This document shows positions 1-32,000 of a stretch of 32,000 bases of DNA, piece after piece (within the stretch, counting starts at the first letter, position 1; each line of letters opens with the position of its first letter). The position numbers and the translations under genes were made by a program. The DNA lies in NCBI GenBank assembly GCA_016196885.1, contig JACPWU010000046.1:35285-67284 (forward strand). Reading direction: 5' to 3'. Below the pieces are notes generated by a model. The model was given only the letters and a program-made list of their open reading frames with translations. It had not been told where the DNA came from and did no database searches. The DNA comes from Chlamydiota bacterium. GTDB lineage: Bacteria; Auribacterota; JACPWU01.

Positions 1-1
1 A

Positions 2-612: not shown

Positions 613-614
613 TT

Positions 615-3344: not shown

Positions 3345-3348
3345 CTTG

Positions 3349-4072: not shown

Positions 4073-4087
4073 TGGGGTTTACCTTTC

Positions 4088-5677: not shown

Positions 5678-5694
5678 AATGCATATTCTTCGTT

Positions 5695-6918
5695 TTAGGC
5701 ATGATTTATTCCAAGACCAAACTTTTGATGAACCGTCTGAACAGCCTTATCTGCATACTCCCTTCTGATGACACAAGAAATCTTAATTTCGGAAGTGCTG
5801 ATCATCAGAATGTTAATCCCCTCTTTGGCCAAGGCTTCAAAAAGATTCGCCGCCACTCCGGAATGACTTTTCATCCCAATCCCCACAACAGACACCTTTG
5901 CAATTTTGTCATCGGAATCAATTTTCTGAGCCCCCACTTCATTGGCCGCATTTTTAAGCACGTTGAGCGTCTTAGATAAATCCGTCTGGCTCACCGTAAA
6001 GGAAATATCCGTATGCCCCTGTTCACTGACGTTTTGAATAATCATGTCAATATTGATATGGGCATCCGCCAGAAGCTTAAAAATCTTGGCTGCAATCCCT
6101 GGTTTATCTGCCACTTTGCTGATAGTCACCTTTGCCTGATCTTTGTCCGCTGTCACACCGCGTATCACTACATCTTCCATTTCTCGAGCCTCCTCTACAA
6201 TCATCGTGCCAGGTTCGTCATTGAAACTGGACCGAACGTGAATCTTGACCCCATATTTTTTCGCAAATTCAATCGACCTCGAATGCATCACCTTCGCCCC
6301 AAGACTGGCCAATTCTAGCATTTCATCATAAGAGATTTCAGGAATTCTCTTCGCCTCGGAAACCACGCGAGGATCTGTCGTAAAAATACCATTCACATCT
6401 GTATAAATTTCGCAATCATCCGCCTTAAGCACCGCCGCCAAAGCCACCGCTGTCGTGTCTGATCCTCCACGTCCCAAAGTCGTGATATCCTGAGCTTCAT
6501 TCACCCCTTGAAAACCCGCCACAATCACGATATTTCCCTCTTTCAAAGCACTTGTCACACGATCTGTACTGATGCTGCGAATTTTCGCCTTGGTGTGAAC
6601 ATTGTCTGTAAAAATTCCGACCTGTGCCCCTGTGAAAGAAATGGCTGAACACCCGAGCGCATGAACGGCCATGCTCAAAAGGGCCGCTGACATTTGCTCT
6701 CCCGTCGCCATCAACATATCCATCTCTCTTTCGCTGGGATCATCCGTCATTTTTTTGGCCAAATCAATCAAATCATCTGTGGTATCTCCCAAGGCTGAAA
6801 CCACCGCGACCACATCATTGCCCGCTTTCTTAGCGGCCACAATTCTTCGAGCCACATTTTTAATGCGCTCTGGATTTGCAACAGAACTTCCACCGTATTT
6901 TTGAACAATCAAAGACAT
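5695..6918 (-). CDS. lysC: Aspartate kinase
   Basis: [13 protein letters not shown] start and two C-terminal ACT-like repeats. I prefer the ATG at 6918 (AAGGGG 8 nt upstream) over the track start at 6942, whose extra MGIKGVFI has no counterpart in aspartokinases. Confidence 0.93.
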
Positions 6919-6932
6919 AATAAAAACCCCTT

Positions 6933-7046
6933 TAATTCCCAATAACCAATAACAAATGACAAATTAATTCCCAATGAACCAATGTCTAATTAAACATTGG
7001 CTATTAGTCATTCATTTGTCATTTGAAATTGGTCATTTGTCATTTC
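6933..7046. repeat. Palindromic thrC-lysC spacer built from heptamer-like units around a central hairpin
   Basis: Central hairpin CCAATGT(6979-6985)/ACATTGG(6994-7000). 11-nt inverted repeat AAATGACAAAT(6954-6964)/ATTTGTCATTT(7014-7024). TCATTTG/GTCATTT units are repeated again at 7033-7045. Direct repeat TAATTCCCAAT at 6933 and 6964. Confidence 0.8.
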
Positions 7047-7048
7047 AC

Positions 7049-8104
7049 CTATACCCACTTCAACACCTCTTCCACTCTGGGTTTAATCACCTTCGGTTCT
7101 CCAGCCACCTTCATCGCCCGATCGGGATCTTTTAAACCATGCCCTGTCAGAGTAGCCACAATCATTTTTTCTCCAGAGTCCTTGAAAAACCCTTCCTTGT
7201 TGAGTTTTATCAAACCTGCAAAAGACGCAGCAGAAGCAGGCTCTGCAAAAATGCCATCCATTTTCGCAAGCATTTGATAAGCTTTCAGAATTTCCTCATC
7301 CGTTACTTTATCAATTTTTCCTTGAGAGGCTTGAACCGTATCCACAGCCTTTTGCCAATTGGCAGGATTGCCAATTTTAATGGCCGTCGCGAGGGTCTCG
7401 GGTTTCTCAATCACATGGCCCTCCACAATGGGTGCCGCACCCGCTGCCTGAAAACCCATCATTTTGGGAAGACGATTAGACTTTTTCAATTTAAAATATT
7501 CTTGATATCCCATCCAGTAGGCCGAAATATTTCCAGCATTCCCCACGGGAATAAAATGATAATCCGGTGCCTTTCCAAGTGCATCGCAAATCTCAAAGGC
7601 TGCCGTTTTCTGACCTTCCAAACGATAAGGATTAATAGAATTTACAAGTGTAAGCGGATGTTTCTTCCCTACTTCTTTAACCACATTCAAGGCCTCGTCA
7701 AAACTTCCCTCCACCGCCAACACAACTGCGCCATGCATCAAGGCCTGAGCCAGTTTTCCCAAGGCAATGCCCCCTTGAGGCACCAGCACAATACACTTCA
7801 TCTTCGCCCGAGCCGCATAAGCTGCGGCTGCGGCTGAGGTATTTCCTGTTGAGGCGCAAATGACGGCTTGAGAACCCTCTTCTAAAGCCTTTGAAATCGC
7901 CATCGTCATCCCACGATCCTTAAAAGATCCCGTGGGATTGGCCCCTTCAAATTTAAAATAAATTTTCAATCCATTCCCTAAAAACTCACTGATATTCTTT
8001 CCATAAATGAGCGGAGTATTCCCCTCATGAAGGGTGACAATCGGCGTGCGATCACTCACCGGAAGAAGGTTGCGATAATGATGAATCAATCCTTGCCAGT
8101 ACAT
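7049..8104 (-). CDS. thrC: Threonine synthase
   Basis: 351 aa. [19 protein letters not shown]-lysine motif, and an N-terminus ([24 protein letters not shown]) typical of short ThrC. AGAGGAG lies upstream of the ATG. Confidence 0.95.
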
Positions 8105-8159
8105 TTTATTTAGAATTCTCCTCTGACACCTTAATGGTTATCTCTAGCCACCCTCTAGA

Positions 8160-8239
8160 GTCATCCCCGAGTGTCCTAATCGGGGATCCAGAAAAACTTC
8201 TCAAACCGTGGATTCCCGCTTGCAACCTGCGGGAATGAC
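8160..8239. repeat. Two mirrored GC hairpins (GTCATCCCCGA..TCGGGGATCCA and TGGATTCCCGC..GCGGGAATGAC) forming an 80-nt palindrome
   Basis: Stems 8163-8170/8180-8187 and 8212-8219/8229-8236, read directly. The two units are reverse complements of each other in design and lie in the hom-thrC spacer. Confidence 0.8.
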
Positions 8240-8281
8240 AACTTATATACATTTTAAATTTATGATAATGATAAATATAAG

Positions 8282-9580
8282 TTAATTCTCTTCTGACTCT
8301 TCTACTCTAATCCTTAACGTTTTTTTACGAATAGCACTCAAACGATCAATGGTTTGAATCGCTTGTCTAAAATTTTTCTCCTTGGCCTGATGCGTCATAA
8401 TCACCACAGGCACAGGCCCGCTTTGATGGCGCTCCGGCTGAATCACAGACGCAATGCTGATGCCATTCTCACCTAGAATCCCTGCAATTCTGGCCAAAAC
8501 ACCCGGCTTATCCAAGGCCGAAAAGCGCAAATAAGACCGGCACTCCAGTTCATCCATATTTTGAATCGCTTTTTGACTCTCTTTTCGGGTCGTGGAAAAA
8601 CTCGAAAAACCATGACCCATTTGCTTCGCAATATCCACCAAATCTCCCACCACCGCACTCGCTGTGGGACGTTCTCCAGCGCCTCTCCCGTAGAAAAGCC
8701 CACGACCCACATAGTCCCCTTCATAATAAATGGCGTTATAAACCCCATTCACAGAAGCCAGCAAATGCGTCTGAGGGATCAAGGTCGGATGAACCCTAGC
8801 CTCCAAAGAGGCTCCTTTATCCTTCGCAATCGCCAAAAGCTTAACGGCATAACCAAATTGACGCACATATTGAATATCTAAAGAAGTGATTTGAGTAATC
8901 CCTTCGACATAAACTTTCTTAAAATCAATCCAATGCCCATACGCCAAAGAAGCCAAAATCACCAACTTATGTGCAGAGTCAATCCCTTCTATGTCTAAAG
9001 TTGAATTGGCCTCTGCATAGCCAAGAGATTTTGCTTGAGCCAAAGCTTCTTCAAAATCCATATTCTCCAAAGTCATCTTGCTCAAAATATAATTAGACGT
9101 TCCGTTCACAATCCCGCAAATTGTCTTAAAATGATTTCCGACCAGTCCCTCTCGAAAGCCCTTAATCACAGGGATTCCGCCGCCGACGCTCCCCTCAAAA
9201 AAAAGATTTTTCCCAGAGCGCTCAGCTGCGCGAAAAAGTTCACGCCCACATTCAGCCAAAAGGGCCTTGTTCGCCGTCACCACATGCTTTCCCTGTTTCA
9301 ACGCCTTCAAAATAAATTCTTTGGCGGGATGAAGCCCTCCAATCAGTTCAATCACGATTTCAATTTGAGGATCCTGAAGAATTTCATCGGCATTCAGAGT
9401 TAAAAGAGAAGAAGATACTTTGATCGCCCTCTTTCTCCCAGGATCCCGATCCGCAATTTTAACGAGTTCGATTTTTCGGCCCGCCCTTTGAAAGATCAAT
9501 TCTTGATTCTCTCTCAAAAGACGCACCACCCCCGTCCCGACCGTGCCAAAACCGATTAAACCTACTTTGATTGTATTCAA
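8282..9580 (-). CDS. hom: Homoserine dehydrogenase
   Basis: NTIKVGLIGFGTVGTG NAD-binding start and a C-terminal ACT domain. I place the start at TTG 9580 (GGAGG 6 nt upstream). The track extension to 9745 reads through repeat sequence and has no homologous look. Confidence 0.9.
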   Translation of the reverse strand: MNTIKVGLIGFGTVGTGVVRLLRENQELIFQRAGRKIELVKIADRDPGRKRAIKVSSSLLTLNADEILQDPQIEIVIELIGGLHPAKEFILKALKQGKHVVTANKALLAECGRELFRAAERSGKNLFFEGSVGGGIPVIKGFREGLVGNHFKTICGIVNGTSNYILSKMTLENMDFEEALAQAKSLGYAEANSTLDIEGIDSAHKLVILASLAYGHWIDFKKVYVEGITQITSLDIQYVRQFGYAVKLLAIAKDKGASLEARVHPTLIPQTHLLASVNGVYNAIYYEGDYVGRGLFYGRGAGERPTASAVVGDLVDIAKQMGHGFSSFSTTRKESQKAIQNMDELECRSYLRFSALDKPGVLARIAGILGENGISIASVIQPERHQSGPVPVVIMTHQAKEKNFRQAIQTIDRLSAIRKKTLRIRVEESEEN

Positions 9581-21333: not shown

Positions 21334-24300
21334 CTACATCTGCGTCTGAGTCAAATCCATCATAGCTTTGAGAGAGGCGAGGCGTTTGGTGGACCGAAGT
21401 TGAAGATGCCTTTTTTGATTCATCTCATCCATGGCAGGGGGATCTATCGACCGAAGGTCGTCACTTATTTTTTGTCCATGCTGGGCTAAAATGTCGAGAA
21501 TCACAGCCAGCTTGGCTTGGTCTAACCTTCCCTCCACAACCCAAGCCATGACACTATTCAACTCATCTCCCAAGCGTTCTTTCAAAGAAGAGGACACAAA
21601 CCATATTTCTTCTAAACTCTGACCCGTCATCTCCTGTCCAAAGCGCTTTTTCGCCTCTGTCTGAATCATCTGAAGGTAATTTTGAGGTGAAAGACGTGTC
21701 TTTCCTTCCCGGATGACAAAAACCTGAACATTCTTGAGATTTGGAGAAAGGCTTAAGGCCTGTCGGGCTGACTTCTCTAACACTTCATCACTTTCTTTAA
21801 CATTTTCATTCACAAAAACAGGAATCAATCCCTTGAAATCTTCTTCTTTTCCGGCCTCTCTCAAATCATTTAGATATTGATTCAAGGCTGTCGGATCCAC
21901 ATGCATTTGACCCTGATCCGTCACAGAAATTCCGACAATATCCTGATCCATGATAGAAACTTGATGGGCGGGAAGATGAGAGATTTGCTCTCGATGTTGC
22001 GTTTTATAAACCCGCCCCATCTCAACCCAAAGAGAACTGCAAACCACTTCTACTTCATGGGTAGAGGGATTGATCATCCTGACCCGTGCAATCACATGAG
22101 CCCTTTCACTTGAACCAGGCTCTTCAGGCAGATTTAAATCCAAAGTTGCCGGATTCTGACCCTCCCAAGATTCAAGGGCTGTTAATAAGTAGGAAAGAAA
22201 TTCTTCGTCTAAATTGGCGTTTACGATATGAATCCTAGAGGATCTTGATGTTAGGACAAGATCCCTCGTTACTCTCGGGATGACACTTTCAGTAGAAGGA
22301 TCTTCCCACATCGCCGCCAGTAAATCATCCAGATAAAGACTTTCAGTATAGTCTGAAAATCCTTCATACTGAGGAATGTGTCTCGGAAGTTCTCCTTTTC
22401 CATTCATGATAAAATTCGCTATTTTTTCAAGCTCTTGATCCTTTAGATCTAATCCGCGAACAGCTCCTGCCAATTGCAAAAGATCCCTAAAAATAGCTGA
22501 TTTTGCCTGCCGCCTTCCTTCTTGATCCACTTTCTCTCCCTTCTCCATGGCCCCAATCAATTTTAATACAGCTTGCCTCAAAGCTCCCACTCTCACATTT
22601 TCTCGAGTGATCAATCGAACCACTCTATCTAATGCCTTCTCAAAAGCCTCATCTCGATCTAGCTCGTTTGTTTGACCCATCAAGAGTCGCAACTGATTGA
22701 GAAGAAGCCGGCGAGCATATTCATCTACCCCCCTCTTAGGGTCAAGTCTTTCCTTGACTACATCTCTACCCAGCACCGTCGCCACCCACTCCTCCCATCC
22801 CAGCTGAACAGGCCTTCCCTCTTCCATGAGCCATTTGAGTTCACAAATATTTTTGTCTGCATCATAAGCTATAAGGTCTGGATACTTTTCGGATAATTGA
22901 ATCAGTTCTTGAATTTCATTTTCATAATCTTCTTGTGCCAACTTCATCCTTCTCTGTTCCTGAAGAGCTTTTTCGTGAAGGTCTTCCAAGAAGGCATATT
23001 CTTTTTCTGTCATGATCTGACGCGCTTCTACATTCCGGCCTATTAAATAATCTTCCAATCTTTGAATAGATTGAGGAATGAGAGAAACACCCTCCACATC
23101 TTCCATAAGTCTTTTTCGCCCTCGGGCTTGGTTTTTTGCCTGGATGGCCTCTCTCAAAGTATAAAAATCGTGATTCTGATTTTGATAAAGTTGTTTCATC
23201 TCTCTCATCCATTTTCTAAGCCCATGAAAAAACAGGGTAAATTTCTTTTTGGATTGACTAGATTTAACACCCATCAGAGTCTCCCTATCGCCCATCACAA
23301 CCAATCGATCTATCGAGCGACTCAAAGCCACATTCAAACGATTCAAATTTCGAATATGACCCACCTCTCCAGCAGAATTGCTCCTGACAAAGCTGTAGAT
23401 CACCACGTGGTTTTCCCTGCCTTGATAGCTATCTACCGTTGAAACTTGCTCACGAACAAGCCCCTCTGCTCGATCTGGATTCATATCTCTTTTCTGAGTT
23501 AAATAACTCTTTAAAAGATCTCTTATCAAATCCACTTGTGCAGCGTAACCGGTTAAAATGGTGATCTGTTCAGGTCTATAACCCGAAAGCAGGGCACGCT
23601 GATATTCCCGAAGAGCTTGTTCAGCCTCTTTCAGATTTTTATAACTTTTCCCTTCTTTCTCTTCATTGGGATGATTTCCTTCCATAGGAACATCTACCAT
23701 TCTCAATGTATCCCTTTCCATCATTCTCCAATACTTAGGAACCATCAACCTTCTATAAAACAATAAACCCACTAAAACTGTAATCGCAGGATGAGATCGA
23801 TAATTTCTCGCCAAAAATACTTGTGGGTATCCTCGATCCCATCTTCGACCCATGCCACTTCTCTTCATCAGTCTTAAAAATTCTTTTCCATGACCCGCCA
23901 TCCATTGACTTTCAAAATAAGGCTGCAACTGTCGATGATCCCCTGCTAGAACAACTTTCTCCCGAGCCTTGGCCACAGCCAGCAAAGTCTCCGCCTCATT
24001 CACAGTCCCGGCTTCTTCAACAATCACAACATCAAAATCATTTCGATAAGTCTCCGGCACAAGACCCATGGAGTGAATCGTCGCACCCACGACATAACCG
24101 TTCCCGTTTAAATTCCAACGGTGTTCACATATCCTAGCTCCTTCTCTATCATATTGATTAAAATTCTGACGATCTCGAACCCAATACTTTCTCAACTTTT
24201 CAAGAATTCTCTCATCTCCTCCACCATCTACCCCTTTGTTATACACACGCATGATGGGAAGTTCTATTTTGTCTAAACGGGCCAACAAATGATCCACAGC

Positions 24301-27300
24301 ACGATTGGTCCTGCTCACGACCATCACCCTTTTACCCTGCTGAACAAACTGTTGAACGATCCCGACCAATGTGGATGTCTTTCCACTGCCCGCCCCTCCC
24401 TGAATCAGAATGACATTGGCTTTAGGATTCAGGGAAACGTCTTGCGCATGGGATTGAAATGGATCGTTCTCAGTATTTCTGTCCATGCCAGAGTGAGCAT
24501 CCTCAATATCCAATCTAGATATAGGCGTTGGTTCTCTCAAACCTAAAAACTCTTTCACGGCATCCGTTGCAGTACCCTCTTCTATTTTCTGCTTCAAATC
24601 CATTAAAGCGATAGCCATCGCCCTTTGAAGTTCAGGACGCATCCCATTTTTACTCGCTCTTCCATCTGTTTTAAGTTTGGCAGTTCCTGCTATCAGCATG
24701 TCTAATTCATCTAAGACTTCTTTTCTTGTCCGTGTCTTAAGAAGAAAACCCTTTTCACCTGGAAGTTGCATAGAGGCAACTTCCGCTTCCCCATTAAATT
24801 CTCCATCTAAAACAGTTATGGACGGAAGTGTAACATTCCATTTCAGGGCGGCTACCCACAAAGGGCGGTTGGGCATCATCCCATTCAAGAGAGACCATAC
24901 ATCATTCCCAAAGCCCCCAGCTTCGCGTTCCCGAAGCGCCACTTGGACCTGCTCAACATTTGAATAACCCGAAGAGAGTCTTGGTTGAAAACCAATAGCG
25001 TTCCCCTTAAGAACCAGACGATGAAATCGAAAAATGGTTTTTCGATGAAAACGTTTTCTCGTCTCATAAATCCAACCTGCCAAGCTATCATCATAAAATC
25101 GTCTTATCTCAACAGGACCTTGACCCGGGCCTGTAGGCAAAACAACCCTCTTTTCCATTTTCTTTTTGAGTTCGCCTCGACCCGTTTCTTCAGTCCACGT
25201 CACGACAACTCTTCCAAATTTATCTGCCTTAAGGCTCCACGGACCTTCGAAAGGTTTCACAGCATTTTTCTCTAAACCTTTTTGACCCATTCTGACATGT
25301 TGAACAATTCTTTCCTCACTCGGATCAAACGGTTTTAAATCCAAATGTTTTTTATCTTCATTCCAGACCATTCTTAAGAAATTGATAAACTCTTCTCCTG
25401 CCACCACACGCCTCGTCTTGTAAACCCATCCCCATTCTGGATCAAAAGTACGACTCAATTTTGCAACCGATGGACATTCTTTTTTTGTTCCGGTAGCAGC
25501 CGAAACATGATGTTCCTTTTTTTGTTCGTCGACCCAATAAAAAGAAATATCTCCTCGAGCATCCGTGGGCACTTCCCAATCTTCAAAAGGCTCTACCGCC
25601 TTGCGTTTCTGGGCTTTGGTTTTTGACATTCTTAGATGAGCAACGATTTGTTCTCGAATAGGATCTTCAATCGGTTCAAACACCCAATGTCCCTTATCTT
25701 CTTCCCATTTCAACCGAGATTGACAAATAATGGTTTTAGATACTCCCTCTTCCGCCACCCTTCTTCGAGTTTCATAAATCCATTCTTTTCTCATGGAATC
25801 AAAAAACCGCCGAACCTCGGCTTCTCCTTCCTCTATAGAACCTGTAGACAATAACGCACTGTTTTTGCCCCAGCCATACGTCAGTTTGCCATTGCCAATC
25901 GTTCCTTGTTTCCACCATCCCAATTCCCTTACTGCATCTGACTTCTGAGCCTCACTCTTTCCCATACTCAGATGAGCCACAACTTCTCGGCGCATTCTAC
26001 CCAGCACCGTTCTATCTAAATTTTTAAACGTCCAAGAGTTATGACTCTCATCCCACTCCAACCTGGACTCGCTGATGATAAATCGGCGACGCCCATTCTC
26101 ATGAACTTCTCTACGCGTTCGATAGACCCAACCCCATTCACGCGTGTAAAAACGCATCACATCTACCCAGACTTTTCCACTGTTCTTACTTCCACTTGTG
26201 GACAAATACCTCTGTTTTCTGACGCCATTGACCGTCACGCTAAACAACAACTGACCGTCATCATTCGTTTCTTGACACCATCTGACGGATTGCGTCCCTT
26301 CCAATTCCAAATGCGTTAACTGATAAACTGTCTCGGCCTTACCCTCTTCAGAACTCAACTCCTTTGCCCGAAGCCACTGATAAACCCTCTGCGCAAAACC
26401 TAACCCTTCTTCTTGCAACATTGTTCTAAACATCGTGAGTTCTTCCACCGTTATCTTCAACTCTTGAAGGACATATTCAATATCCTCTTCCAAAAGCATG
26501 GCCTCTTCTTCTATCGTGTTACCTACACCCGACTCATGCCTGAGTTCATGCCTCAAACCGAGCTTCAATAATTTCAACCGGCAAGCAGGAGAAATTCTTG
26601 AGTTAAAAACTTGACCATTGATGCCAATAAAACCGTTCGTTTGATGATCTTCAAAAAGGTGAGTAGAACTTGAAAGGAGGGATAGAATAATTTCATTACC
26701 TTGCGGAGGTGAATGATCAAACTGCTCAGCCAAATATTCTTTCAAAAACTTTTCAAAATCATTTGAACCCTCAAAACCAAAAGCTGTAAACCTAGACAAA
26801 ATCTCTTTATCTATCCACACCGCTTTACCTGCAATCTCACCCAAAGATTTTGACTGGGCTTTAACTTGGCCTTTTATCTGCTGAATATCTTTTCCTTCTA
26901 TCCCCTGCCCCCACCACATCATTGGGCCCTCATTTTTGAGCTTTAGCCCTTCCATGTTGGCAATATTCGACGGAGCAGGTCCTGACACTCCAAATTTGCT
27001 TTCCCATTCTCTACTCAGAGGATCCACAAACAAATATTGAAACAAAGGATGTTGACCCTTATCTATAACATCTCCAACATCATGAGTTATTTTTTCCTGA
27101 CTGAGTCCTCTTCCTGAATAAAGTAGACCCAGGAAAAATACTTTATCATTGTCATTTAGCATTCTTTTTAAAACACGCTCGTTTTCAAATGGTGGGGCAT
27201 GTCCCAGGGCAGACTCCAGATGAAGGGCAAAAATCCACTCATCAATGTATATGCCTCTCATATACACATCTATGGTGTTCCAAATCATCCGGCGAAGATT

Positions 27301-28806
27301 CAGTTTTTGCTTTTGATCTAACACTCCCCGTTTCAAAATTTGATTAAAATACGTTCTGGAATTTTCATCTTGATTGTATTCCAATTGAAAATCATTCTGT
27401 CGCTCTCTTAAAACCAAAGCAATGTATTCCATCGCTTGCTCATTTGCCAATATCTCAGGCCAAAATCCCAGGGCCAATCGCCTCTGAAAAAGGACACGTA
27501 AGGAGCCATCTTCTTTCAGACGCTCAACCTGTAATCTTCGATCGCTTCCCAAAATTTTTCCCATTTCTTCTGTTATTCTCTTATGCTCTTTCAGGTAAGG
27601 CGTATGATCTATATGAAAGGCCTCATGTGCCATAAACGCCTCCAAGGCATATTTTCGATAAGCCTCCGTTATTAGATCCAAATTAACCGTCAGCTTTTGA
27701 TCCAAAGGCTCCATGGTCATGGGTGCTTTAACCCCTTTTCCGCCTCTCCCTCTAACAACCACCAGTTGAATTTCACGTGTGCGTAGTTTTTCAAGCAATA
27801 CTTGTGCTTTTTCTTTCTGGGGAGATTCCAGCATGCCTTCTTGAATGGACTGAAGCTTTTGAAGAGCTTGCGCTTGATCACTTAAAGCAGGAGTATTCAT
27901 AAAAGAATTTGAAGAAGAAGGTGCTACTGGAATTTTGCTTTCTTTTTTCTGAGGCCTCAAAAAACCTAACCAATAAGAGACTCCAACCACGCCAACAACA
28001 CCCAATCCACCCAAAAACCATCTTCTTGAAAAAGTTTTTGACTGTTTTTGTAACGCGACAATCAATGCTGAACTCCCTTGAAATAAATCCACCGATATCA
28101 AGTCTCGTACAGCAATCCCCAACTCTCTTGCATAATCAACATCTTGATCAAACAGCTCTTTTTCAAACGCATCCAGCTCTTCATCCAACTTCTCTTTCAT
28201 CTCATGCCTCAACTCATGACGAAGGCCCAAATTAAGGAGTTTAAAAAGAAATGAGTTGTCTATATTTTGTGCAAATAGCTGTTTGCTGATACCTATAAAT
28301 CCATTGCCTTGATGGTCTTCAAAAGGATGGCGGGAATTTTCGAGGAGGGAAATCACAAAAGCACCCGCATATCCAGCTTTTTCACGAGAGCGCACCTGAG
28401 CTAAAAGCTGACCCTGCTCTGCATCCGTCATACGATCCATTTGCTGCTGAAAAGCCTGACGAATCAGTTCTACTTTTCCTAAATCTGCTCCCGGAAAATC
28501 AAAAACAGCTTCAACCTGACTCCCCTTTTCATCTCCATGGCGTAAAACAAAACTCTCTTTCTTTCCTTTCGAATGGATGAAGCGCTTATATTCCTTCAAT
28601 CTTTCTTCATTCGTCAAATCAATCCGTTTTCCATTTTTAAATCCTTGGCGTTTTATCCAAACTCCACTTTCTCCCTTCTTAAAACTGAGCCCTTCCATGT
28701 GGGCAATGACTGAGGTCAGATCCTGTAATTTAACCTCTGGAAGTTCTTGCCGCTCCACATTTCGATTGACTCTCTTTGATAGAATCTTTAGAATCCGCTC
28801 CATCAT
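21334..28806 (-). CDS. Minimal version of the giant gene (2,490 aa) starting at ATG-ATG 28806
   Basis: MMERILKILSKR.. is the first in-frame Met pair after the antisense stretch. Everything downstream (HELRH modules, repeats, helicase motifs) has normal protein-like composition. No good SD at a canonical distance (GGAG 14 nt upstream), so the start is uncertain. Confidence 0.6.
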   Translation of the reverse strand: MMERILKILSKRVNRNVERQELPEVKLQDLTSVIAHMEGLSFKKGESGVWIKRQGFKNGKRIDLTNEERLKEYKRFIHSKGKKESFVLRHGDEKGSQVEAVFDFPGADLGKVELIRQAFQQQMDRMTDAEQGQLLAQVRSREKAGYAGAFVISLLENSRHPFEDHQGNGFIGISKQLFAQNIDNSFLFKLLNLGLRHELRHEMKEKLDEELDAFEKELFDQDVDYARELGIAVRDLISVDLFQGSSALIVALQKQSKTFSRRWFLGGLGVVGVVGVSYWLGFLRPQKKESKIPVAPSSSNSFMNTPALSDQAQALQKLQSIQEGMLESPQKEKAQVLLEKLRTREIQLVVVRGRGGKGVKAPMTMEPLDQKLTVNLDLITEAYRKYALEAFMAHEAFHIDHTPYLKEHKRITEEMGKILGSDRRLQVERLKEDGSLRVLFQRRLALGFWPEILANEQAMEYIALVLRERQNDFQLEYNQDENSRTYFNQILKRGVLDQKQKLNLRRMIWNTIDVYMRGIYIDEWIFALHLESALGHAPPFENERVLKRMLNDNDKVFFLGLLYSGRGLSQEKITHDVGDVIDKGQHPLFQYLFVDPLSREWESKFGVSGPAPSNIANMEGLKLKNEGPMMWWGQGIEGKDIQQIKGQVKAQSKSLGEIAGKAVWIDKEILSRFTAFGFEGSNDFEKFLKEYLAEQFDHSPPQGNEIILSLLSSSTHLFEDHQTNGFIGINGQVFNSRISPACRLKLLKLGLRHELRHESGVGNTIEEEAMLLEEDIEYVLQELKITVEELTMFRTMLQEEGLGFAQRVYQWLRAKELSSEEGKAETVYQLTHLELEGTQSVRWCQETNDDGQLLFSVTVNGVRKQRYLSTSGSKNSGKVWVDVMRFYTREWGWVYRTRREVHENGRRRFIISESRLEWDESHNSWTFKNLDRTVLGRMRREVVAHLSMGKSEAQKSDAVRELGWWKQGTIGNGKLTYGWGKNSALLSTGSIEEGEAEVRRFFDSMRKEWIYETRRRVAEEGVSKTIICQSRLKWEEDKGHWVFEPIEDPIREQIVAHLRMSKTKAQKRKAVEPFEDWEVPTDARGDISFYWVDEQKKEHHVSAATGTKKECPSVAKLSRTFDPEWGWVYKTRRVVAGEEFINFLRMVWNEDKKHLDLKPFDPSEERIVQHVRMGQKGLEKNAVKPFEGPWSLKADKFGRVVVTWTEETGRGELKKKMEKRVVLPTGPGQGPVEIRRFYDDSLAGWIYETRKRFHRKTIFRFHRLVLKGNAIGFQPRLSSGYSNVEQVQVALREREAGGFGNDVWSLLNGMMPNRPLWVAALKWNVTLPSITVLDGEFNGEAEVASMQLPGEKGFLLKTRTRKEVLDELDMLIAGTAKLKTDGRASKNGMRPELQRAMAIALMDLKQKIEEGTATDAVKEFLGLREPTPISRLDIEDAHSGMDRNTENDPFQSHAQDVSLNPKANVILIQGGAGSGKTSTLVGIVQQFVQQGKRVMVVSRTNRAVDHLLARLDKIELPIMRVYNKGVDGGGDERILEKLRKYWVRDRQNFNQYDREGARICEHRWNLNGNGYVVGATIHSMGLVPETYRNDFDVVIVEEAGTVNEAETLLAVAKAREKVVLAGDHRQLQPYFESQWMAGHGKEFLRLMKRSGMGRRWDRGYPQVFLARNYRSHPAITVLVGLLFYRRLMVPKYWRMMERDTLRMVDVPMEGNHPNEEKEGKSYKNLKEAEQALREYQRALLSGYRPEQITILTGYAAQVDLIRDLLKSYLTQKRDMNPDRAEGLVREQVSTVDSYQGRENHVVIYSFVRSNSAGEVGHIRNLNRLNVALSRSIDRLVVMGDRETLMGVKSSQSKKKFTLFFHGLRKWMREMKQLYQNQNHDFYTLREAIQAKNQARGRKRLMEDVEGVSLIPQSIQRLEDYLIGRNVEARQIMTEKEYAFLEDLHEKALQEQRRMKLAQEDYENEIQELIQLSEKYPDLIAYDADKNICELKWLMEEGRPVQLGWEEWVATVLGRDVVKERLDPKRGVDEYARRLLLNQLRLLMGQTNELDRDEAFEKALDRVVRLITRENVRVGALRQAVLKLIGAMEKGEKVDQEGRRQAKSAIFRDLLQLAGAVRGLDLKDQELEKIANFIMNGKGELPRHIPQYEGFSDYTESLYLDDLLAAMWEDPSTESVIPRVTRDLVLTSRSSRIHIVNANLDEEFLSYLLTALESWEGQNPATLDLNLPEEPGSSERAHVIARVRMINPSTHEVEVVCSSLWVEMGRVYKTQHREQISHLPAHQVSIMDQDIVGISVTDQGQMHVDPTALNQYLNDLREAGKEEDFKGLIPVFVNENVKESDEVLEKSARQALSLSPNLKNVQVFVIREGKTRLSPQNYLQMIQTEAKKRFGQEMTGQSLEEIWFVSSSLKERLGDELNSVMAWVVEGRLDQAKLAVILDILAQHGQKISDDLRSIDPPAMDEMNQKRHLQLRSTKRLASLKAMMDLTQTQM

Positions 28807-31800
28807 GGAAGAGAAAAAGTCTCCAAAACCCGTTCCTACTTCTGAAGAAACCCAACGATACAACTCCGTTCTGATTGAGGAAATGCGAGGCCAATTTAAG
28901 GTGATTGGAGAAGGACTGACCAGCTTTAGGAAAGAAGCTAATGAGAAATTTGATACCCTATACGAGATGGTTGCCAAAAACACTGAAGATATTGGAGATG
29001 TCCGCATCCGAATGGGTCGGGTTGAAGAAAAACTTGAAAGAATGGAAGGGGACCTTCGCATCATCAAGAACCAAATCAAAGTCAAAGTAGACCTTGAAGA
29101 ATTCAAATTGCTAGAAGGTAGACTTGTCATTGTCGAAAAACGGCTTTCAGCACTCGCCTCTTGATTTTTTTCCACGACAGCTCTTAAATACTCCAAATTC
29201 ATCTGATGATGTCGCCACATCGTCAGAGCAAAAAGTCCTACACCAAAAAATCCAATCACAAACCAATGGGAACGAAAGAATTGAAGATGAGGAACAACAC
29301 CCAACCCATTGACACCTCTAGGAAGGGTTGTTAAACTTCCCTTATGGCCCCTACCAAAACGATTTTCTACCTGGTTGCCTTGAACTCCAACGTAAGACGA
29401 AGACATAAACATACCCGGATAGGGAAGACAGTTACGAGTTTTTCCGTCCAAATTAAAATTTCCCATAACAGGATCTGGAAGGTCATTGTCAGGTACGATA
29501 CCGCTCATGGCTTTGCCCATAGAGACCTGATCAGGGCCAGTGGAAAGGTTGACAAAAACCCACTTTTCGTTCAGAATTACAATGAGGCCTTGGATACTGC
29601 TGAAGCTGATCTTCGTAACAATTGGGAAAGTTACGTTGACAACTTCCTGAAGGAGAATGAATAATGACGGAAAAAATCTTGTTTGAGAAAAATCTAGAAC
29701 TTTCAACAGAATTCTCAAAATACGTTTTGTCTCACCCAGAACTGGATGATCAGATTCCTGAGGGGGCACAGATTGTCTTCTTACTTGAGAGCGACCCTGC
29801 CCTTTCCAAAAAAAATCTTGAACTCGCCAAAGAACAGCATGAAGAAGGTCAACCTGTTGTCCTTGTTCACGTGGAGGGACTTCGTCCCGAAGTTTCTCGC
29901 CTGATCTCACCCCGTCTTGAAAAGGCTGTTGGGTTTTAGCCACAACAAATTGATTCAAATACCCCAAATTCATCCGATGATGTCGCCAAGTCGTGAGGAC
30001 AAAAAATCCCACGCCAAAAGATGCAATCATCATCCAATGGGAAGAAATCAAGAAAAGCGTGTAGGCAACCGAAACCGCAGCAAAATTCTCTAATGCAATT
30101 CTAAATATTCCAGACCACGGTGGCGCACGAAGACCCAGTTCTTTAAGCAATCTCTTACGTCCTGGAATATGCCCAACCGTAAAACTTGCCCATACAAAAG
30201 CCAAAATCCCAAAACCAGCAAATCCTCCTGAAAGGACCGCCAAAGCACTCAAACCCCAAAATGTCACGTGCTCAATTGTCGCTTGATGTTCAAGCTCAAT
30301 CTCCAACCCTTTAAAAACTCTAAAATTTTCAATCGCCCAAGATAAAAGAGGGATTATGCCTGCTTCGGCCTTTTCAGTTACACTCTCAGCCTCTGAAAAC
30401 GCCGGGAAAAAGCGGTCCAAAACCGCTAAGGTTTCATCGGGGCTGTGCACTTCCCGAAAGCATCCTCCCAAAGGCTGCATCCAGAGGTCACCGTCCAGAC
30501 TCAGGCTCGGATCATTTCCAATGGCCAGCGCTTGTCCGGGAACAATCCCCCTTTTACTCATCATAAAATCTCTTCCAACCGCTTTCGTAATGCCTTTCGG
30601 AACAATGTGCCAACCATCTTCCGAGACTTCGAGCTTCTCCGCCATAGCCCTAATTTGATCATCTGGTTTTTGTTTAAGCTGTTCGACTAAACGTCCGCCA
30701 CTTCCATAGGCCTCCAGAGAAGCCCCACGATTGTGCACTGATTCTCCTAACACCTGTGCCAGTTGGCTAAAATCAATCTCTTGTTCTTCAGCCTTGTCAT
30801 ATTTCTTAGCCCAACTTTCCTCCTCCCATAAATATCCTTGAGCGGATCCACAGGGGAAAAGACCTATTCTATTTAGAATAGGGTCCCGTTGCTCTGGCGT
30901 CCAACCCTGCATTCTCTCTTCTAAGGGGCGAATGACATTCTTTCGCAATTCTTCCATGCCCTGCATCGTGACGACCATGAGAGAAAGATCGGCATGGCTC
31001 CATAAAATGTTCACCAGCTTCTCTACCATTTGTGACGAAAGAGGTGTTTTTTTAGGCGTTACTAATGTTCCATCCAAATCGAGGGCTAAAAGATGAATCT
31101 CATTTTCGGCATGATTGGCTTGCAGAGGAAAAGATGAATCATCTCGAAAGATTTCTTTAAATGTCTCGCCCTCTATAAAATCGTTCCATAGTCCTCTCAA
31201 ACCATTCGTCAGGCGCCAGCTCGTCTTAAGCTTCCAGCCGCCATTGGATCTTTGAGCAACCAACTGTCCTTCCCTCTCTTTACCCTTGTCATCCCAGCGC
31301 TTCCATTGCAAGGCATTCCCACTGAGATGCAAACGATCTATATTCGTCTTACGAGGTAGCGCCGCATGACAGAAAATCCATTCCTGCCCTTGCGTCCCTA
31401 ATCGCGGTTCACCTGTCTCATTCGAACTATCGTACCCCTGAGGCACTGGCTCATAAGGACCATCGAACTCTCCCAGAAGAGGAGCAGAATGCTCTACTGG
31501 ATACCACGCCCTTGGGTACCAGAATTTCACCTCCGTTCCCTGACGCCTGAGCAGCCCAAGACTATTCGCAAACCACGCCTCCCAACTTTGAGGAATAGCA
31601 ATACCCTTCGATTTCATCAAATAGCAGAGATACCCTACGAAAGCCGAAGGATAATGAAACTTGTTTGGAGAATGTTCAGGACTTTCCATGGATCCAAATG
31701 AAACATCTACCACAATCACCTGCCTCGCCCGCCCTATCTTGGACTTTTCCTCATCAGAGAATACATCGTCAAAATATCCAGTGAATCCCACATTCTCAAT

Positions 31801-32000
31801 CTTGCTCGATCCAATTTTTGTTTGAATCACTTGAATATTTGTTCCCAAAATATAAGTGTTTCCATCCACACGCTCATCCGTCAATGCCGCGAGAGGAAAC
31901 CAGCCATTGGTTAAATTAGCCACCACAACCATGGCCTGATCAGCGGCTTCATAACTTCCCAATGATTCTTTTAAAGCCTCCCTTCGCTTCAGAATAAGAT
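21334..32000 (-). CDS. Maximal giant ORF (>3,555 codons, 5' end open at the window edge): HAD-like + membrane block + HExxH modules + novel repeats + SF1B helicase
   Basis: No in-frame stop from 32000 down to the TAG at 21334-21336. The track start at 31962 is a TTG and the frame continues open upstream (..LILKRREALKES-LGSY..). Most of the translation looks like genuine protein, but 28805-29939 is antisense to better plus-strand genes (see findings). Confidence 0.55.
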   Translation of the reverse strand, partial: LILKRREALKESLGSYEAADQAMVVVANLTNGWFPLAALTDERVDGNTYILGTNIQVIQTKIGSSKIENVGFTGYFDDVFSDEEKSKIGRARQVIVVDVSFGSMESPEHSPNKFHYPSAFVGYLCYLMKSKGIAIPQSWEAWFANSLGLLRRQGTEVKFWYPRAWYPVEHSAPLLGEFDGPYEPVPQGYDSSNETGEPRLGTQGQEWIFCHAALPRKTNIDRLHLSGNALQWKRWDDKGKEREGQLVAQRSNGGWKLKTSWRLTNGLRGLWNDFIEGETFKEIFRDDSSFPLQANHAENEIHLLALDLDGTLVTPKKTPLSSQMVEKLVNILWSHADLSLMVVTMQGMEELRKNVIRPLEERMQGWTPEQRDPILNRIGLFPCGSAQGYLWEEESWAKKYDKAEEQEIDFSQLAQVLGESVHNRGASLEAYGSGGRLVEQLKQKPDDQIRAMAEKLEVSEDGWHIVPKGITKAVGRDFMMSKRGIVPGQALAIGNDPSLSLDGDLWMQPLGGCFREVHSPDETLAVLDRFFPAFSEAESVTEKAEAGIIPLLSWAIENFRVFKGLEIELEHQATIEHVTFWGLSALAVLSGGFAGFGILAFVWASFTVGHIPGRKRLLKELGLRAPPWSGIFRIALENFAAVSVAYTLFLISSHWMMIASFGVGFFVLTTWRHHRMNLGYLNQFVVAKTQQPFQDGVRSGEKLRDEVPPREQGQQVDLLHAVLWRVQDFFWKGQGRSQVRRQSVPPQESDHPVLGETKRILRILLKVLDFSQTRFFPSLFILLQEVVNVTFPIVTKISFSSIQGLIVILNEKWVFVNLSTGPDQVSMGKAMSGIVPDNDLPDPVMGNFNLDGKTRNCLPYPGMFMSSSYVGVQGNQVENRFGRGHKGSLTTLPRGVNGLGVVPHLQFFRSHWFVIGFFGVGLFALTMWRHHQMNLEYLRAVVEKNQEASAESRFSTMTSLPSSNLNSSRSTLTLIWFLMMRRSPSILSSFSSTRPIRMRTSPISSVFLATISYRVSNFSLASFLKLVSPSPITLNWPRISSIRTELYRWVSSEVGTGFGDFFSSMMERILKILSKRVNRNVERQELPEVKLQDLTSVIAHMEGLSFKKGESGVWIKRQGFKNGKRIDLTNEERLKEYKRFIHSKGKKESFVLRHGDEKGSQVEAVFDFPGADLGKVELIRQAFQQQMDRMTDAEQGQLLAQVRSREKAGYAGAFVISLLENSRHPFEDHQGNGFIGISKQLFAQNIDNSFLFKLLNLGLRHELRHEMKEKLDEELDAFEKELFDQDVDYARELGIAVRDLISVDLFQGSSALIVALQKQSKTFSRRWFLGGLGVVGVVGVSYWLGFLRPQKKESKIPVAPSSSNSFMNTPALSDQAQALQKLQSIQEGMLESPQKEKAQVLLEKLRTREIQLVVVRGRGGKGVKAPMTMEPLDQKLTVNLDLITEAYRKYALEAFMAHEAFHIDHTPYLKEHKRITEEMGKILGSDRRLQVERLKEDGSLRVLFQRRLALGFWPEILANEQAMEYIALVLRERQNDFQLEYNQDENSRTYFNQILKRGVLDQKQKLNLRRMIWNTIDVYMRGIYIDEWIFALHLESALGHAPPFENERVLKRMLNDNDKVFFLGLLYSGRGLSQEKITHDVGDVIDKGQHPLFQYLFVDPLSREWESKFGVSGPAPSNIANMEGLKLKNEGPMMWWGQGIEGKDIQQIKGQVKAQSKSLGEIAGKAVWIDKEILSRFTAFGFEGSNDFEKFLKEYLAEQFDHSPPQGNEIILSLLSSSTHLFEDHQTNGFIGINGQVFNSRISPACRLKLLKLGLRHELRHESGVGNTIEEEAMLLEEDIEYVLQELKITVEELTMFRTMLQEEGLGFAQRVYQWLRAKELSSEEGKAETVYQLTHLELEGTQSVRWCQETNDDGQLLFSVTVNGVRKQRYLSTSGSKNSGKVWVDVMRFYTREWGWVYRTRREVHENGRRRFIISESRLEWDESHNSWTFKNLDRTVLGRMRREVVAHLSMGKSEAQKSDAVRELGWWKQGTIGNGKLTYGWGKNSALLSTGSIEEGEAEVRRFFDSMRKEWIYETRRRVAEEGVSKTIICQSRLKWEEDKGHWVFEPIEDPIREQIVAHLRMSKTKAQKRKAVEPFEDWEVPTDARGDISFYWVDEQKKEHHVSAATGTKKECPSVAKLSRTFDPEWGWVYKTRRVVAGEEFINFLRMVWNEDKKHLDLKPFDPSEERIVQHVRMGQKGLEKNAVKPFEGPWSLKADKFGRVVVTWTEETGRGELKKKMEKRVVLPTGPGQGPVEIRRFYDDSLAGWIYETRKRFHRKTIFRFHRLVLKGNAIGFQPRLSSGYSNVEQVQVALREREAGGFGNDVWSLLNGMMPNRPLWVAALKWNVTLPSITVLDGEFNGEAEVASMQLPGEKGFLLKTRTRKEVLDELDMLIAGTAKLKTDGRASKNGMRPELQRAMAIALMDLKQKIEEGTATDAVKEFLGLREPTPISRLDIEDAHSGMDRNTENDPFQSHAQDVSLNPKANVILIQGGAGSGKTSTLVGIVQQFVQQGKRVMVVSRTNRAVDHLLARLDKIELPIMRVYNKGVDGGGDERILEKLRKYWVRDRQNFNQYDREGARICEHRWNLNGNGYVVGATIHSMGLVPETYRNDFDVVIVEEAGTVNEAETLLAVAKAREKVVLAGDHRQLQPYFESQWMAGHGKEFLRLMKRSGMGRRWDRGYPQVFLARNYRSHPAITVLVGLLFYRRLMVPKYWRMMERDTLRMVDVPMEGNHPNEEKEGKSYKNLKEAEQALREYQRALLSGYRPEQITILTGYAAQVDLIRDLLKSYLTQKRDMNPDRAEGLVREQVSTVDSYQGRENHVVIYSFVRSNSAGEVGHIRNLNRLNVALSRSIDRLVVMGDRETLMGVKSSQSKKKFTLFFHGLRKWMREMKQLYQNQNHDFYTLREAIQAKNQARGRKRLMEDVEGVSLIPQSIQRLEDYLIGRNVEARQIMTEKEYAFLEDLHEKALQEQRRMKLAQEDYENEIQELIQLSEKYPDLIAYDADKNICELKWLMEEGRPVQLGWEEWVATVLGRDVVKERLDPKRGVDEYARRLLLNQLRLLMGQTNELDRDEAFEKALDRVVRLITRENVRVGALRQAVLKLIGAMEKGEKVDQEGRRQAKSAIFRDLLQLAGAVRGLDLKDQELEKIANFIMNGKGELPRHIPQYEGFSDYTESLYLDDLLAAMWEDPSTESVIPRVTRDLVLTSRSSRIHIVNANLDEEFLSYLLTALESWEGQNPATLDLNLPEEPGSSERAHVIARVRMINPSTHEVEVVCSSLWVEMGRVYKTQHREQISHLPAHQVSIMDQDIVGISVTDQGQMHVDPTALNQYLNDLREAGKEEDFKGLIPVFVNENVKESDEVLEKSARQALSLSPNLKNVQVFVIREGKTRLSPQNYLQMIQTEAKKRFGQEMTGQSLEEIWFVSSSLKERLGDELNSVMAWVVEGRLDQAKLAVILDILAQHGQKISDDLRSIDPPAMDEMNQKRHLQLRSTKRLASLKAMMDLTQTQM
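23270..24450 (-). other. Upf1/DNA2-like SF1B helicase core within the giant ORF
   Basis: Walker A GGAGSGKTS (24376-24402), Walker B FDVVIVEEAG, motif III VVLAGDHRQLQP (23921-23955), NYRSHPAI, VDSYQGRENHVVIYSFVRSN and motif VI NRLNVALSRS (about 23324-23360). Confidence 0.85.
24980..26290 (-). repeat. Four tandem ~117-aa (about 351-nt) protein repeats of an unrecognised domain
   Basis: Recurring core: VMRFYTREWGWVYRTRREV (26111-26160), VRRFFDSMRKEWIYETRRRV (about 25751-25815), SRTFDPEWGWVYKTRRVV (about 25407-25456), IRRFYDDSLAGWIYETRKRF (about 25051-25107). Each of the first three cores is followed by SRLxWxEDxxHWxFxP and (I)VAHLxMxK..AQK..AV; the fourth repeat lacks these trailing motifs. Confidence 0.8.
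26420..26985 (-). other. HELRH module, copy 2 (paralogue of 28090-28725)
   Basis: IANMEGLKLKNEG ... LFEDHQTNGFIGINGQVF ... LKLGLRHELRHES; HELRH codons at 26536-26550. Confidence 0.6.
26986..27960 (-). other. Region with a third HExxH motif (AFMAHEAFHIDH)
   Basis: HEAFH codons at 27613-27627. The region follows the twin-arginine-like hydrophobic segment. No family recognised. Confidence 0.4.
27963..28035 (-). other. Twin-arginine-like motif plus hydrophobic helix (TFSRRWFLGGLGVVGVVGVSYWLG) inside the giant ORF
   Basis: SRRWFLG matches the S/T-R-R-x-F-L Tat consensus and is followed by about 20 hydrophobic residues. It could equally be an internal transmembrane helix. Confidence 0.5.
28090..28725 (-). 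other. HELRH module, copy 1
   Basis: IAHMEGLSFKKGESG ... PFEDHQGNGFIGISKQLF ... LNLGLRHELRHEM; HELRH codons at 28204-28218. Confidence 0.6.
28805..29164 (+). CDS. 119-aa coiled-coil protein of unknown function, antisense to the giant frame
   Basis: MEEKKSPKPVPTSEETQRYNSVLIEEMRGQFKVIGEGLTSFRKEANEKFDTLYEMV...LEGRLVIVEKRLSALAS has balanced, heptad-like composition. The opposite-strand translation over the same bases has 30 Ser in about 120 residues by my count. No clear SD. Confidence 0.55.
   Translation: MEEKKSPKPVPTSEETQRYNSVLIEEMRGQFKVIGEGLTSFRKEANEKFDTLYEMVAKNTEDIGDVRIRMGRVEEKLERMEGDLRIIKNQIKVKVDLEEFKLLEGRLVIVEKRLSALAS
29172..29275. repeat. Direct repeat copy A (about 105 nt), immediately 3' of the 28805 gene
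   Basis: 29186-29271 aligns without gaps to 29957-30042, with 71 of 86 positions identical by hand count. On the minus strand it encodes SHWFVIGFFGVGLFALTMWRHHQMNLEYLRAVVEKNQE. Confidence 0.8.
29344..29664 (+). CDS. 106-aa small protein with RYDTAHGFAHRD motif (first gene of a two-gene cassette)
   Basis: ..KVIVRYDTAHGFAHRDLIRASGKVDKNPLFVQNYNEALDTAEADLRNNWESYVDNFLKENE resembles, from memory, small uncharacterised proteins with an (R)YDxAHG..H motif that precede a ~90-aa partner. Its stop overlaps the next ATG (TAATG). The N-terminal 30 aa look poor, so the start is uncertain. Confidence 0.55.
   Translation: MAPTKTIFYLVALNSNVRRRHKHTRIGKTVTSFSVQIKISHNRIWKVIVRYDTAHGFAHRDLIRASGKVDKNPLFVQNYNEALDTAEADLRNNWESYVDNFLKENE
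29664..29939 (+). CDS. 91-aa small protein, DUF5647-like by recollection (second gene of the cassette)
   Basis: MTEKILFEKNLELSTEFSKYVLSHPELDDQIPEGAQIVFLLESDPALSKKNLELAKEQHEEGQPVVLVHVEGLRP.. has normal globular composition. AAGGAG (29650-29655) lies 8 nt upstream of the ATG. The family name is recalled, not verified. Confidence 0.7.
   Translation: MTEKILFEKNLELSTEFSKYVLSHPELDDQIPEGAQIVFLLESDPALSKKNLELAKEQHEEGQPVVLVHVEGLRPEVSRLISPRLEKAVGF
29940..30046. repeat. Direct repeat copy B (about 105 nt), immediately 3' of the 29664 gene
   Basis: Partner of 29172-29275 at an offset of 771 nt (257 codons). On the minus strand it encodes SHWMMIASFGVGFFVLTTWRHHRMNLGYLNQFVVAKTQQ. Confidence 0.8.
29990..30360 (-). 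other. Multi-helix hydrophobic (membrane) block of the giant frame
   Basis: IIPLLSWAIENF, VTFWGLSALAVLSGGFAGFGILAFVWASFTV, IFRIALENFAAVSVAYTLFLI and HWMMIASFGVGFFVLTTW are consecutive hydrophobic stretches of helix length. Confidence 0.6.
30470..31100 (-). other. HAD-superfamily-like phosphatase fold within the giant frame
   Basis: Motif I LLALDLDGTLV (about 31066-31086). A long cap-like insert, conserved Lys region PKGITKAVG, and a terminal acidic motif AIGNDPSLSLDGD (30481-30537). The pattern fits Cof/IIB-type HAD proteins, but similarity was judged by eye only. Confidence 0.5.

Follow-up and report, generated by a model that had tools for sequence, protein, structure and literature searches.

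The DNA window analysed here comprises 32,000 nucleotides of a Chlamydiota bacterium (GenBank assembly GCA_016196885.1, contig JACPWU010000046.1, positions 35,285 to 67,284), and it holds a giant minus-strand open reading frame (ORF) that stays open from the window end down to its single stop codon at 21334-21336. This ORF extends 19 nt past the window and is annotated as a 3,561-residue product (GCA_016178005.1, contig JACOUD010000031.1). Nested within it, on the opposite strand, are three small genes, here called A, B and C, which the giant frame crosses antisense without interruption. An original prediction, made from the letters alone, had called this stop-free passage unexpected, and we followed it up computationally. 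The features of the locus are listed below in the direction in which the giant host ORF is read; P and L numbers denote predicted proteins and loci used for comparison.

21334-32000, minus strand: host giant ORF with one stop only (21334-21336), annotated with 3,561 residues
29941-32000, minus strand: N-terminal module of the host, a HAD-like region followed by hydrophobic helices and the final motif WRHHRMNLGYL
29957-30047, minus strand: direct repeat copy 1, host coding, hydrophobic helix plus WRHHRMNLGYL; starts 18 nt after the stop of gene C
28804-29940, minus strand: stop-free filler of 379 host codons, made up of repeat copy 2 and the antisense strands of C, B and A
29664-29939, plus strand: gene C, DUF5647 family, 91 amino acids (Pfam PF18882, E 7.4e-28)
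29344-29664, plus strand: gene B, DUF7718 family, 106 amino acids (Pfam PF24839, E 5.2e-29)
29309-29337, plus strand: promoter-like site for B-C (TTGACA, 17-nt spacer, TG, TAAACT), ending 6 nt before the ATG of B
29186-29277, minus strand: direct repeat copy 2, host coding, hydrophobic helix plus WRHHQMNLEYL; begins ~20 nt beyond the stop of gene A
28805-29164, plus strand: gene A, a 119-amino-acid coiled-coil protein of no Pfam family; homologues P0047, P0048, L002 (two copies) and L165
28801-28807, both strands: CATCATG, in which the ATG of A (plus) interlocks with two host-frame ATG codons (minus)
28766-28794, plus strand: promoter-like site for A (TTGACT, 17-nt spacer, TAGAAT), ending 10 nt before the ATG of A
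21334-28803, minus strand: C-terminal part of the host, 2,489 residues, with a superfamily-1 helicase core (AAA_11, E 8e-24; AAA_12, E 3e-33)

Genes B and C matched their Pfam families over almost the whole profile, with 100.6 bits for B (cut-off 25; profile positions 6-102 of 104) and 96.6 bits for C (cut-off 27; profile positions 2-76 of 79). The motif RYDT.H.FAHRD was invariant in an alignment of B with 17 homologues, and intact C orthologues adjoined B in every nested locus looked at in detail. At the junction of the two genes, the stop of B and the start of C overlap in TAATG (29662-29666). For gene A, a word-based search found two homologues only, and a metagenome scan with the A alignment gave no match. 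Its coding character was judged from L003, a free-standing copy with an interrupted antisense strand. Over the last 35 codons, 31 residues were identical, and the codon differences were 17 synonymous versus 4 non-synonymous, falling on the three codon positions as 7/2/20, which indicates purifying selection in the frame of A itself. Read from its first in-frame ATG, the ORF of A would be longer (28577-29164). Judged by their sequences, all three plus-strand ORFs are real and intact genes, under purifying selection on their own strand; the Pfam matches of B and C, the codon-position pattern of A and the conserved promoters bear out what had been a premise of the original prediction.

The A and B-C cassettes each carry their own predicted sigma-70-like promoter. 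Upstream of B, 11 of the 13 related cassettes that were inspected had this -35/extended -10 arrangement, equally far from the start codon; the site upstream of A was conserved in three other copies (both L002 copies and L003). Promoters so conserved and so close to the ATG (6-10 nt) point to independent, probably leaderless, transcripts. Exact look-ups of the B and C proteins found no called gene on record.

The starts of A, B and C are congruent to 2, 1 and 0 mod 3, so that the giant frame meets the three genes in three different phases, with the codons of B exactly antisense-aligned to the host codons. In the minus frame whose codons start at coordinates divisible by 3, no stop occurs in the 379 codons from 28804 to 29940, compared with 16-26 stops in each of the other five frames. 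The minus translation over gene A contains 30 Ser in 121 residues, and no Pfam match was found in the filler. The coordinates, the phases, the gene overlap and the Ser-rich translation had all been described correctly in the original prediction. It had also proposed a shuffle of synonymous codons, which was run by keeping the plus-strand proteins fixed and redrawing their synonymous codons from the window's own codon usage. The chance of no antisense stop was 0.07 for A, 0.07 for B and 0.02 for C, or jointly about 1e-4. Stop-codon reassignment was dismissed: the frame is open with all three standard stops counted, and the neighbouring genes end normally.

The arrangement recurs in independent assemblies. 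Among 1.8 billion representative proteins searched with the host segment, there were predicted proteins that hold the antisense translation of the B-C pair (P0005, P0011 and P0034) or of gene A (P0002 and P0022); P0001, listed as a 97% relative, proved to be the window's own protein and hence offered no independent comparison. The DNA around 160 relatives of B was furthermore fetched from genomes and metagenomes. At 13 of these loci, B-C lay antisense within a long or contig-spanning stop-free frame (up to >8.3 kb), and 16 showed an antisense ORF of 600-1,070 nt covering exactly the cassette. Ordinary antisense stops were found at 125 loci, and the other 6 were without an adjacent C. Thus, B and C remained adjacent in 154 of the 160 loci, and the whole antisense strand was open in 29 of these 154 cassettes, versus approximately 0.3 expected by chance. 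The open trait clusters among related cassettes, with the nearest neighbour also open in 25 of 30 cases. Four of seven nested genome loci were labelled Candidatus Omnitrophota, and the free-standing open loci include Elusimicrobia. One close relative of the nested B genes (L088, 43-306; 60% identical to the B of the window) has one codon-aligned antisense stop; this copy may be decayed or relocated, and could help to date when the constraint was lost.

Nine of the ten nested loci whose flanks were usable (a set that contains the window and L004) had 400 stop-free codons in the same frame on each side; in L006 and L143, a contig end cut one side short. The 400-residue flanks of these ten loci had no detectable similarity to each other. 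In L007, the frame of the open antisense encodes a HEAT domain upstream of the cassette and cytidylyltransferase, PRK and methyltransferase domains downstream of it, while L008 and L013 have one HATPase_c domain each in the host frame, and the window too has Pfam domains on both sides. A second A-type cassette (L165, 3396-3890, within positions 1-8427 of the window's contig) is nested antisense and stop-free in a different host, a 1,350-residue ORF with an NAGPA domain, near whose N-terminus it lies. Other small genes are nested likewise, namely genes of the DUF433 and DUF5615 families, and PIN and DUF2283 genes in L109. In L002, a second A-like gene (6828-7175, minus strand) directly follows the stop of the giant ORF, and its whole antisense strand is open for 139 codons (6805-7224, plus strand).

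Across eight nested loci, 43 antisense stops were expected within B and C and none was present; multiplied together, the per-gene probabilities come to about 1e-24. This figure assumes independence between the loci, a reasonable though inexact approximation at 45-65% protein identity. The host frame always crossed B codon on codon, and B contained no TTA, CTA or TCA codon, although TTA or CTA make up 15-43% of the Leu codons of the hosts. Because L007 and L013 have a different B/C overlap from the other six loci, gene C was crossed in two phases, and it was open in both. Three nested A copies were likewise stop-free, with resampling probabilities of 0.06, 0.06 and 0.009, the last being that of L165. 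A chance origin of the open antisense frame is therefore effectively ruled out, and a chance shadow ORF was rejected: the openness is not compatible with codon usage, and it is present in relatives. Selection against stops, one of the alternatives named in the original prediction, is supported.

Two reasons for such selection had been offered there, overprinting and an obligate read-through linker. The ORF is kept open on both strands in the 29 cassettes mentioned above, but constraint on a second protein was not found. In a synonymous-site test of B, identical codons at identical residues amounted to 0.39-0.40 in nested loci versus 0.43 in ordinary ones at matched amino-acid identity, and the codons at the invariant RYDTAHGFAHRD motif varied freely between nested loci when the translations were compared. 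There is thus no excess synonymous conservation in B, which argues that the antisense peptide is filler and not an overprinted protein. The sequences point to selection that removes stops from the antisense strand without preserving a second protein; the linker fits best, and overprinting as a second functional protein is not supported.

The flanks of the cassettes may record how they arrived. In host-strand order, the locus consists of the N-terminal module, repeat copy 1, the antisense of C, B and their promoter, repeat copy 2, the antisense of A and its promoter, and the C-terminal part. The two repeat copies (92 nt, 83% identical) lie 771 nt apart, which is a multiple of 3, and are in frame with each other. 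They differ by 5 synonymous and 25 non-synonymous codon changes; with no clear synonymous excess, this divergence says little on which strand constrains the repeat copies. The N-terminal ~690 residues of the host are 60% identical to the large predicted protein P0002 of locus L002 (E 3.5e-145), in which one repeat copy (HHEMNLEYL) stands directly before an A cassette of its own, without B-C. The homology between the window and L002 ends at the -35 element of A, and the host sequences beyond are unrelated. In a more distant relative, P0026, the helix-NLEYL motif runs straight into host sequence with no cassette. In the simplest history, A would have inserted after the helix first, and B-C later, the second event duplicating some 100 nt of the host. 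In L013 (66 nt, 97% identical), L004 (~45 nt, encoding GYLVPT.SGARL) and L010 (~130 nt), the cassettes likewise lie between directly duplicated stretches of host coding sequence. By these comparisons, insertion goes with the direct duplication of 45-130 nt of host coding sequence, and the presence of the B-C cassette in at least 10 mutually unrelated host contexts indicates mobility.

No terminal inverted repeats were found around the inserts, and the only inverted repeats of the window were four pairs of 14-16 nt, as expected by chance. An invertible, shufflon-like segment was rejected: the flanking repeats are direct. A hairpin candidate in repeat copy 2 (CTGATGATG...CATCGTCAG) was not kept in copy 1, and no alignment was obtained for a possible third copy of the repeat near 27900-28100. 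The Pfam scans of nine large window ORFs and the giant ORF contained no integrase, and viral contigs yielded one distant DUF7718 gene only; phages are not an obvious vehicle. In other hosts, short motifs recur in the host ORFs and flank the cassettes as well. GARL[AST] occurs 13 times in L004, with varied codons, and also in L008 and L009, while RSEAR has 7 sites in L005 and 2 in L006. The DNA behind RSEAR (CGCTCCGAAGCG), a 12-mer, is nearly palindromic, and its nucleotide sequence is kept in two different metagenome-assembled genomes (MAGs). This 12-mer may be an in-frame DNA element resembling repetitive extragenic palindromic (REP) sequences, a recombination site or a processing site.

A different setting was found at L109, L010 and L096. 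There, the 5' end of the downstream host gene (its start and signal peptide) is duplicated, and the cassette follows the extra copy. This gives an ORF composed of signal peptide and antisense filler, which stops at the start of the intact host gene, with an ATGA overlap in L109. In L109 (2554-6805), three units follow in series, each starting with a copy of the same host signal peptide (CLAAPAWAA). Units 1 and 2 run on as antisense filler over PIN, and over DUF2283 together with DUF5647 and DUF7718, and the stop of each overlaps the start of the unit after it; unit 3 is the host gene itself, intact.

In the explanation that we prefer, and regard as probable, two cassettes (promoter-A and promoter-B-C) are nested antisense in a 3,561-codon multi-domain host gene, in which they are translationally transparent filler. 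Ribosomes on the host mRNA would read through some 380 filler codons into the downstream helicase-containing part, and the insertion would neither truncate the protein nor uncouple translation from transcription, thereby sparing the downstream message polarity. Cassettes with this translational transparency would survive in long or highly translated genes, while others would be purged. The small genes would be transcribed convergently from their own promoters. The cassettes may be toxin-antitoxin-like addiction modules, an idea that arises because PIN, DUF433, DUF5615 and DUF2283 genes are nested the same way. In nested and free-standing layouts alike, ribosomes that started on a host message would stay on it across the cassette; the free-standing layout, with its signal peptide, filler and stop/start overlap, suggests that the role of the stop-free antisense strand is to keep host translation going. 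Cassette lineages so equipped could persist at otherwise lethal or costly sites. More broadly, we lean slightly towards a so far undescribed lifestyle of small, selfish, promoter-bearing cassettes with an evolved stop-free antisense strand, comprising DUF7718-DUF5647 pairs, the coiled-coil gene, and PIN, DUF433, DUF5615 and DUF2283 genes, which sit backwards in very long genes or just behind the starts of genes for secreted proteins and are read as harmless filler.

Several observations weigh against this explanation. No recombinase was found, and across loci the cassette ends showed no conserved terminal sequence from which a recombination site could be defined. A conserved host-frame ATG interlocks with the ATG of A, and the C-terminal part could start there independently. 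L002 shares the N-terminal module and the A cassette, but its C-terminal part is unrelated, a pattern that fits module shuffling or two merely abutting genes. The duplicated helix is a possible extra membrane pass that would flip the downstream topology, which is awkward for one functional protein. Finally, an antisense ORF as long as the cassette is preserved in the 16 free-standing cassettes, in some of them with a start codon of its own (L012), and therefore the open frame could serve the cassette itself. Under that alternative, which we consider unlikely, the frame belongs to the cassette as a third overlapping antisense gene or as an antisense transcript translated for the cassette's regulation; the fusion to the host would be incidental, with the N- and C-terminal host parts made separately. 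It is consistent with the exact span of these 16 ORFs, which cover B-C and nothing else, with their start at an ATG inside the end of C in L010 and L012, and with the heritability of the trait within a cassette subfamily. However, B shows no extra synonymous-site constraint and thus no conserved antisense protein, and the nested frame joins real host domains over kilobases on both sides, for which an incidental fusion would have a probability of about 1 in 9 per locus. Furthermore, unrelated cassette types (A, DUF433, DUF5615, PIN and DUF2283) share the property, and the free-standing copies begin with a duplicated 5' end of the host.

The interlocked start codons, in CCATCATGG at 28800-28808, lead to another reading, which strikes us as more doubtful still: two abutting host genes, in which the N-terminal product runs into the filler and a 2,489-residue protein starts at the ATG-ATG at 28806-28801, divergent from A, the open frame serving only to keep ribosomes on the message by translational coupling. 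The original prediction had proposed such shared start codons. The interlock is real, the host-frame Met is conserved in the window, P0002 and P0022, and an internal restart is possible there; the continuity of the frame on both sides is not explained by it. The combination in L002 of the same N-terminal module and A cassette with a different C-terminal part would suit two genes, as would the stop/start overlaps in which the free-standing arrangements end. Unlike in those cases, however, there is no stop between the parts in the window, the 14 nt from the upstream GGAG to the ATG exceed typical Shine-Dalgarno spacing, and most of the long homologous proteins have the following domain in an internal position. 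Selection against stops would still be needed, so that this reading overlaps with the one that we prefer. We see a much smaller probability for a polyprotein from which the filler is cut out post-translationally at the short recurring motifs. GARL[AST] (L004, L008 and L009) and RSEAR (L005 and L006) do stand directly on both sides of the cassette in other hosts, but the host ORF of the window has no such motif, its flanks being the duplicated helix and WRHH.MNL.YL. No protease was identified, and the conservation of RSEAR as nearly palindromic DNA points to a DNA element rather than a cleavage site. It is hardly credible, in turn, that the shadow ORF arose by chance or that the assembly contains a mis-oriented or chimeric block of 1.1 kb. 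Long antisense ORFs do arise by chance opposite real genes, and about 10% of ordinary B genes (8 of 73 non-nested loci) are without a stop in the codon-aligned antisense frame, but the joint probabilities given above stand against chance, both here and over the eight loci. An assembly error, which the original prediction had asked to be checked, is very unlikely: the same arrangement and orientation, with the open frame, occur in 13 independent assemblies, MAGs and metagenome contigs of different projects, and a flipped block would place three stop-terminated genes in the host strand.

Our preferred explanation, nested cassettes read through by the host, was compared with known systems. In Shigella and enteroaggregative E. 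coli, set1A/set1B lie inside pic/she as fully nested antisense protein genes. Like the nested cassettes, they are small genes wholly within, and antisense to, a large gene with an open frame; unlike them, they represent one locus with both products functional, whereas the cassettes form a mobile family with many hosts and an unconstrained host-frame peptide. Phage morons are autonomous promoter-gene-terminator units inserted between genes, and they resemble the cassettes as compact, independently transcribed cargo without a recombinase of its own. However, they are intergenic and not antisense in an ORF, and require no stop-free opposite strand. Integron cassettes are small mobile gene units, too, often toxin-antitoxin genes separated by repeats, but they are promoterless with a conserved attC end, while the nested cassettes have their own promoter and host-derived repeats that differ by locus. 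With conserved promoters, host-derived flanking repeats and no integrase in the Pfam scans of the window, an integron gene cassette was rejected.

Type II toxin-antitoxin modules share with B-C the layout of two small co-directional genes with a stop/start overlap, present in many copies per lineage. B-C was also found alongside PIN, DUF433, DUF5615 and DUF2283 genes nested the same way. A recognised family is missing from this likeness: DUF7718 and DUF5647 had no PADLOC or NCBIfam model and matched no solved structure in the PDB, Rfam gave no match for the cassettes, and nothing relevant was found in the full-text literature on DUF5647/DUF7718 and nested antisense toxin-antitoxin genes. It is the arrangement of the genes and the company they keep that hint at a toxin-antitoxin nature of B-C.

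The closest parallel concerns Rickettsia palindromic elements (RPEs) and other transposable elements of the miniature inverted-repeat kind (MITEs), which are in-frame insertions in protein-coding genes (PMC10969869). Like the cassettes, RPEs are selfish, sit in frame and stop-free in many unrelated host ORFs, and add an extra peptide to the host protein. They differ as palindromic elements of ~150 bp with no genes, whereas the cassettes measure 0.4-2 kb, carry intact opposite-strand genes plus a promoter, lack terminal inverted repeats and are flanked by long duplications of host coding sequence; a short palindromic non-coding element they are not. We classify the cassettes as a gene-carrying, promoter-bearing antisense form of such a 'translated-through' selfish insertion, of which no prior description was found in the searchable literature. 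The giant genes of Omnitrophota have been described as long multi-domain ORFs with transmembrane segments from groundwater MAGs (bioRxiv 10.1101/2023.11.21.568195 and 10.64898/2026.06.07.730766), and the words antisense, nested and opposite strand occur in neither of these papers. The window ORF, with 3,561 amino acids, is far shorter than the giants described there.

If our explanation is correct, the non-coding strand of a gene can come under selection for nothing more than remaining translatable, and the in-frame RPEs would have a gene-carrying counterpart. Part of the 'giant proteins' predicted in Omnitrophota-like bacteria would then be antisense filler instead of functional sequence, and domain or structure analyses of such proteins would take in hundreds of meaningless filler residues. 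Since the giant ORF was called while B and C are absent from the record, whole gene families could be under-counted in such genomes. The loci would also be a natural setting in which to study bacterial tolerance of insertions into long genes, translation-transcription coupling and polarity, and the regulation of toxin-antitoxin-like modules by convergent intragenic transcription.

Beyond the cassettes, a Pfam scan of the large ORFs characterised the window as an ordinary bacterial chromosome, and the host organism is probably an Omnitrophota-like groundwater bacterium. The other minus-strand genes encode valyl-tRNA synthetase (ValRS), a LeuA-like synthase, aspartokinase, a pyridoxal-phosphate-dependent (PALP-family) enzyme, homoserine dehydrogenase, sulfite reductase, PBP1C and alpha-2-macroglobulin, after which comes the giant ORF. 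Within the giant gene, no further plus-strand ORF had a Pfam match. Its N-terminal module gave a weak Hydrolase_3 match in Pfam and has its hydropathy peaks at 30255-29995. The homologue in L002 (55-2100) reaches ~690 residues further towards the N-terminus than the window ORF, and in the genome of the window this extra part may be a separate upstream ORF or absent. The domain directly after the cassettes matches internal parts of many proteins of 2,000-6,000 residues. The C-terminal part of the host (~23800-28200, minus strand) contains internal protein repeats: a module type ending in FEDHQ.NGFIGI...LGLRHELRHE, which is present twice and likewise matches internal parts of many proteins of that size, and four or five modules with a W-[GI]-[WY]-[VI]-Y-x-TR-[RK] motif. 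Lastly, an ordinary, non-nested pair of a nucleotidyltransferase (NTP_transf_2, MNT-like) and a HEPN gene lies at 3349-4072 (minus strand), between the LeuA-like and ValRS genes.

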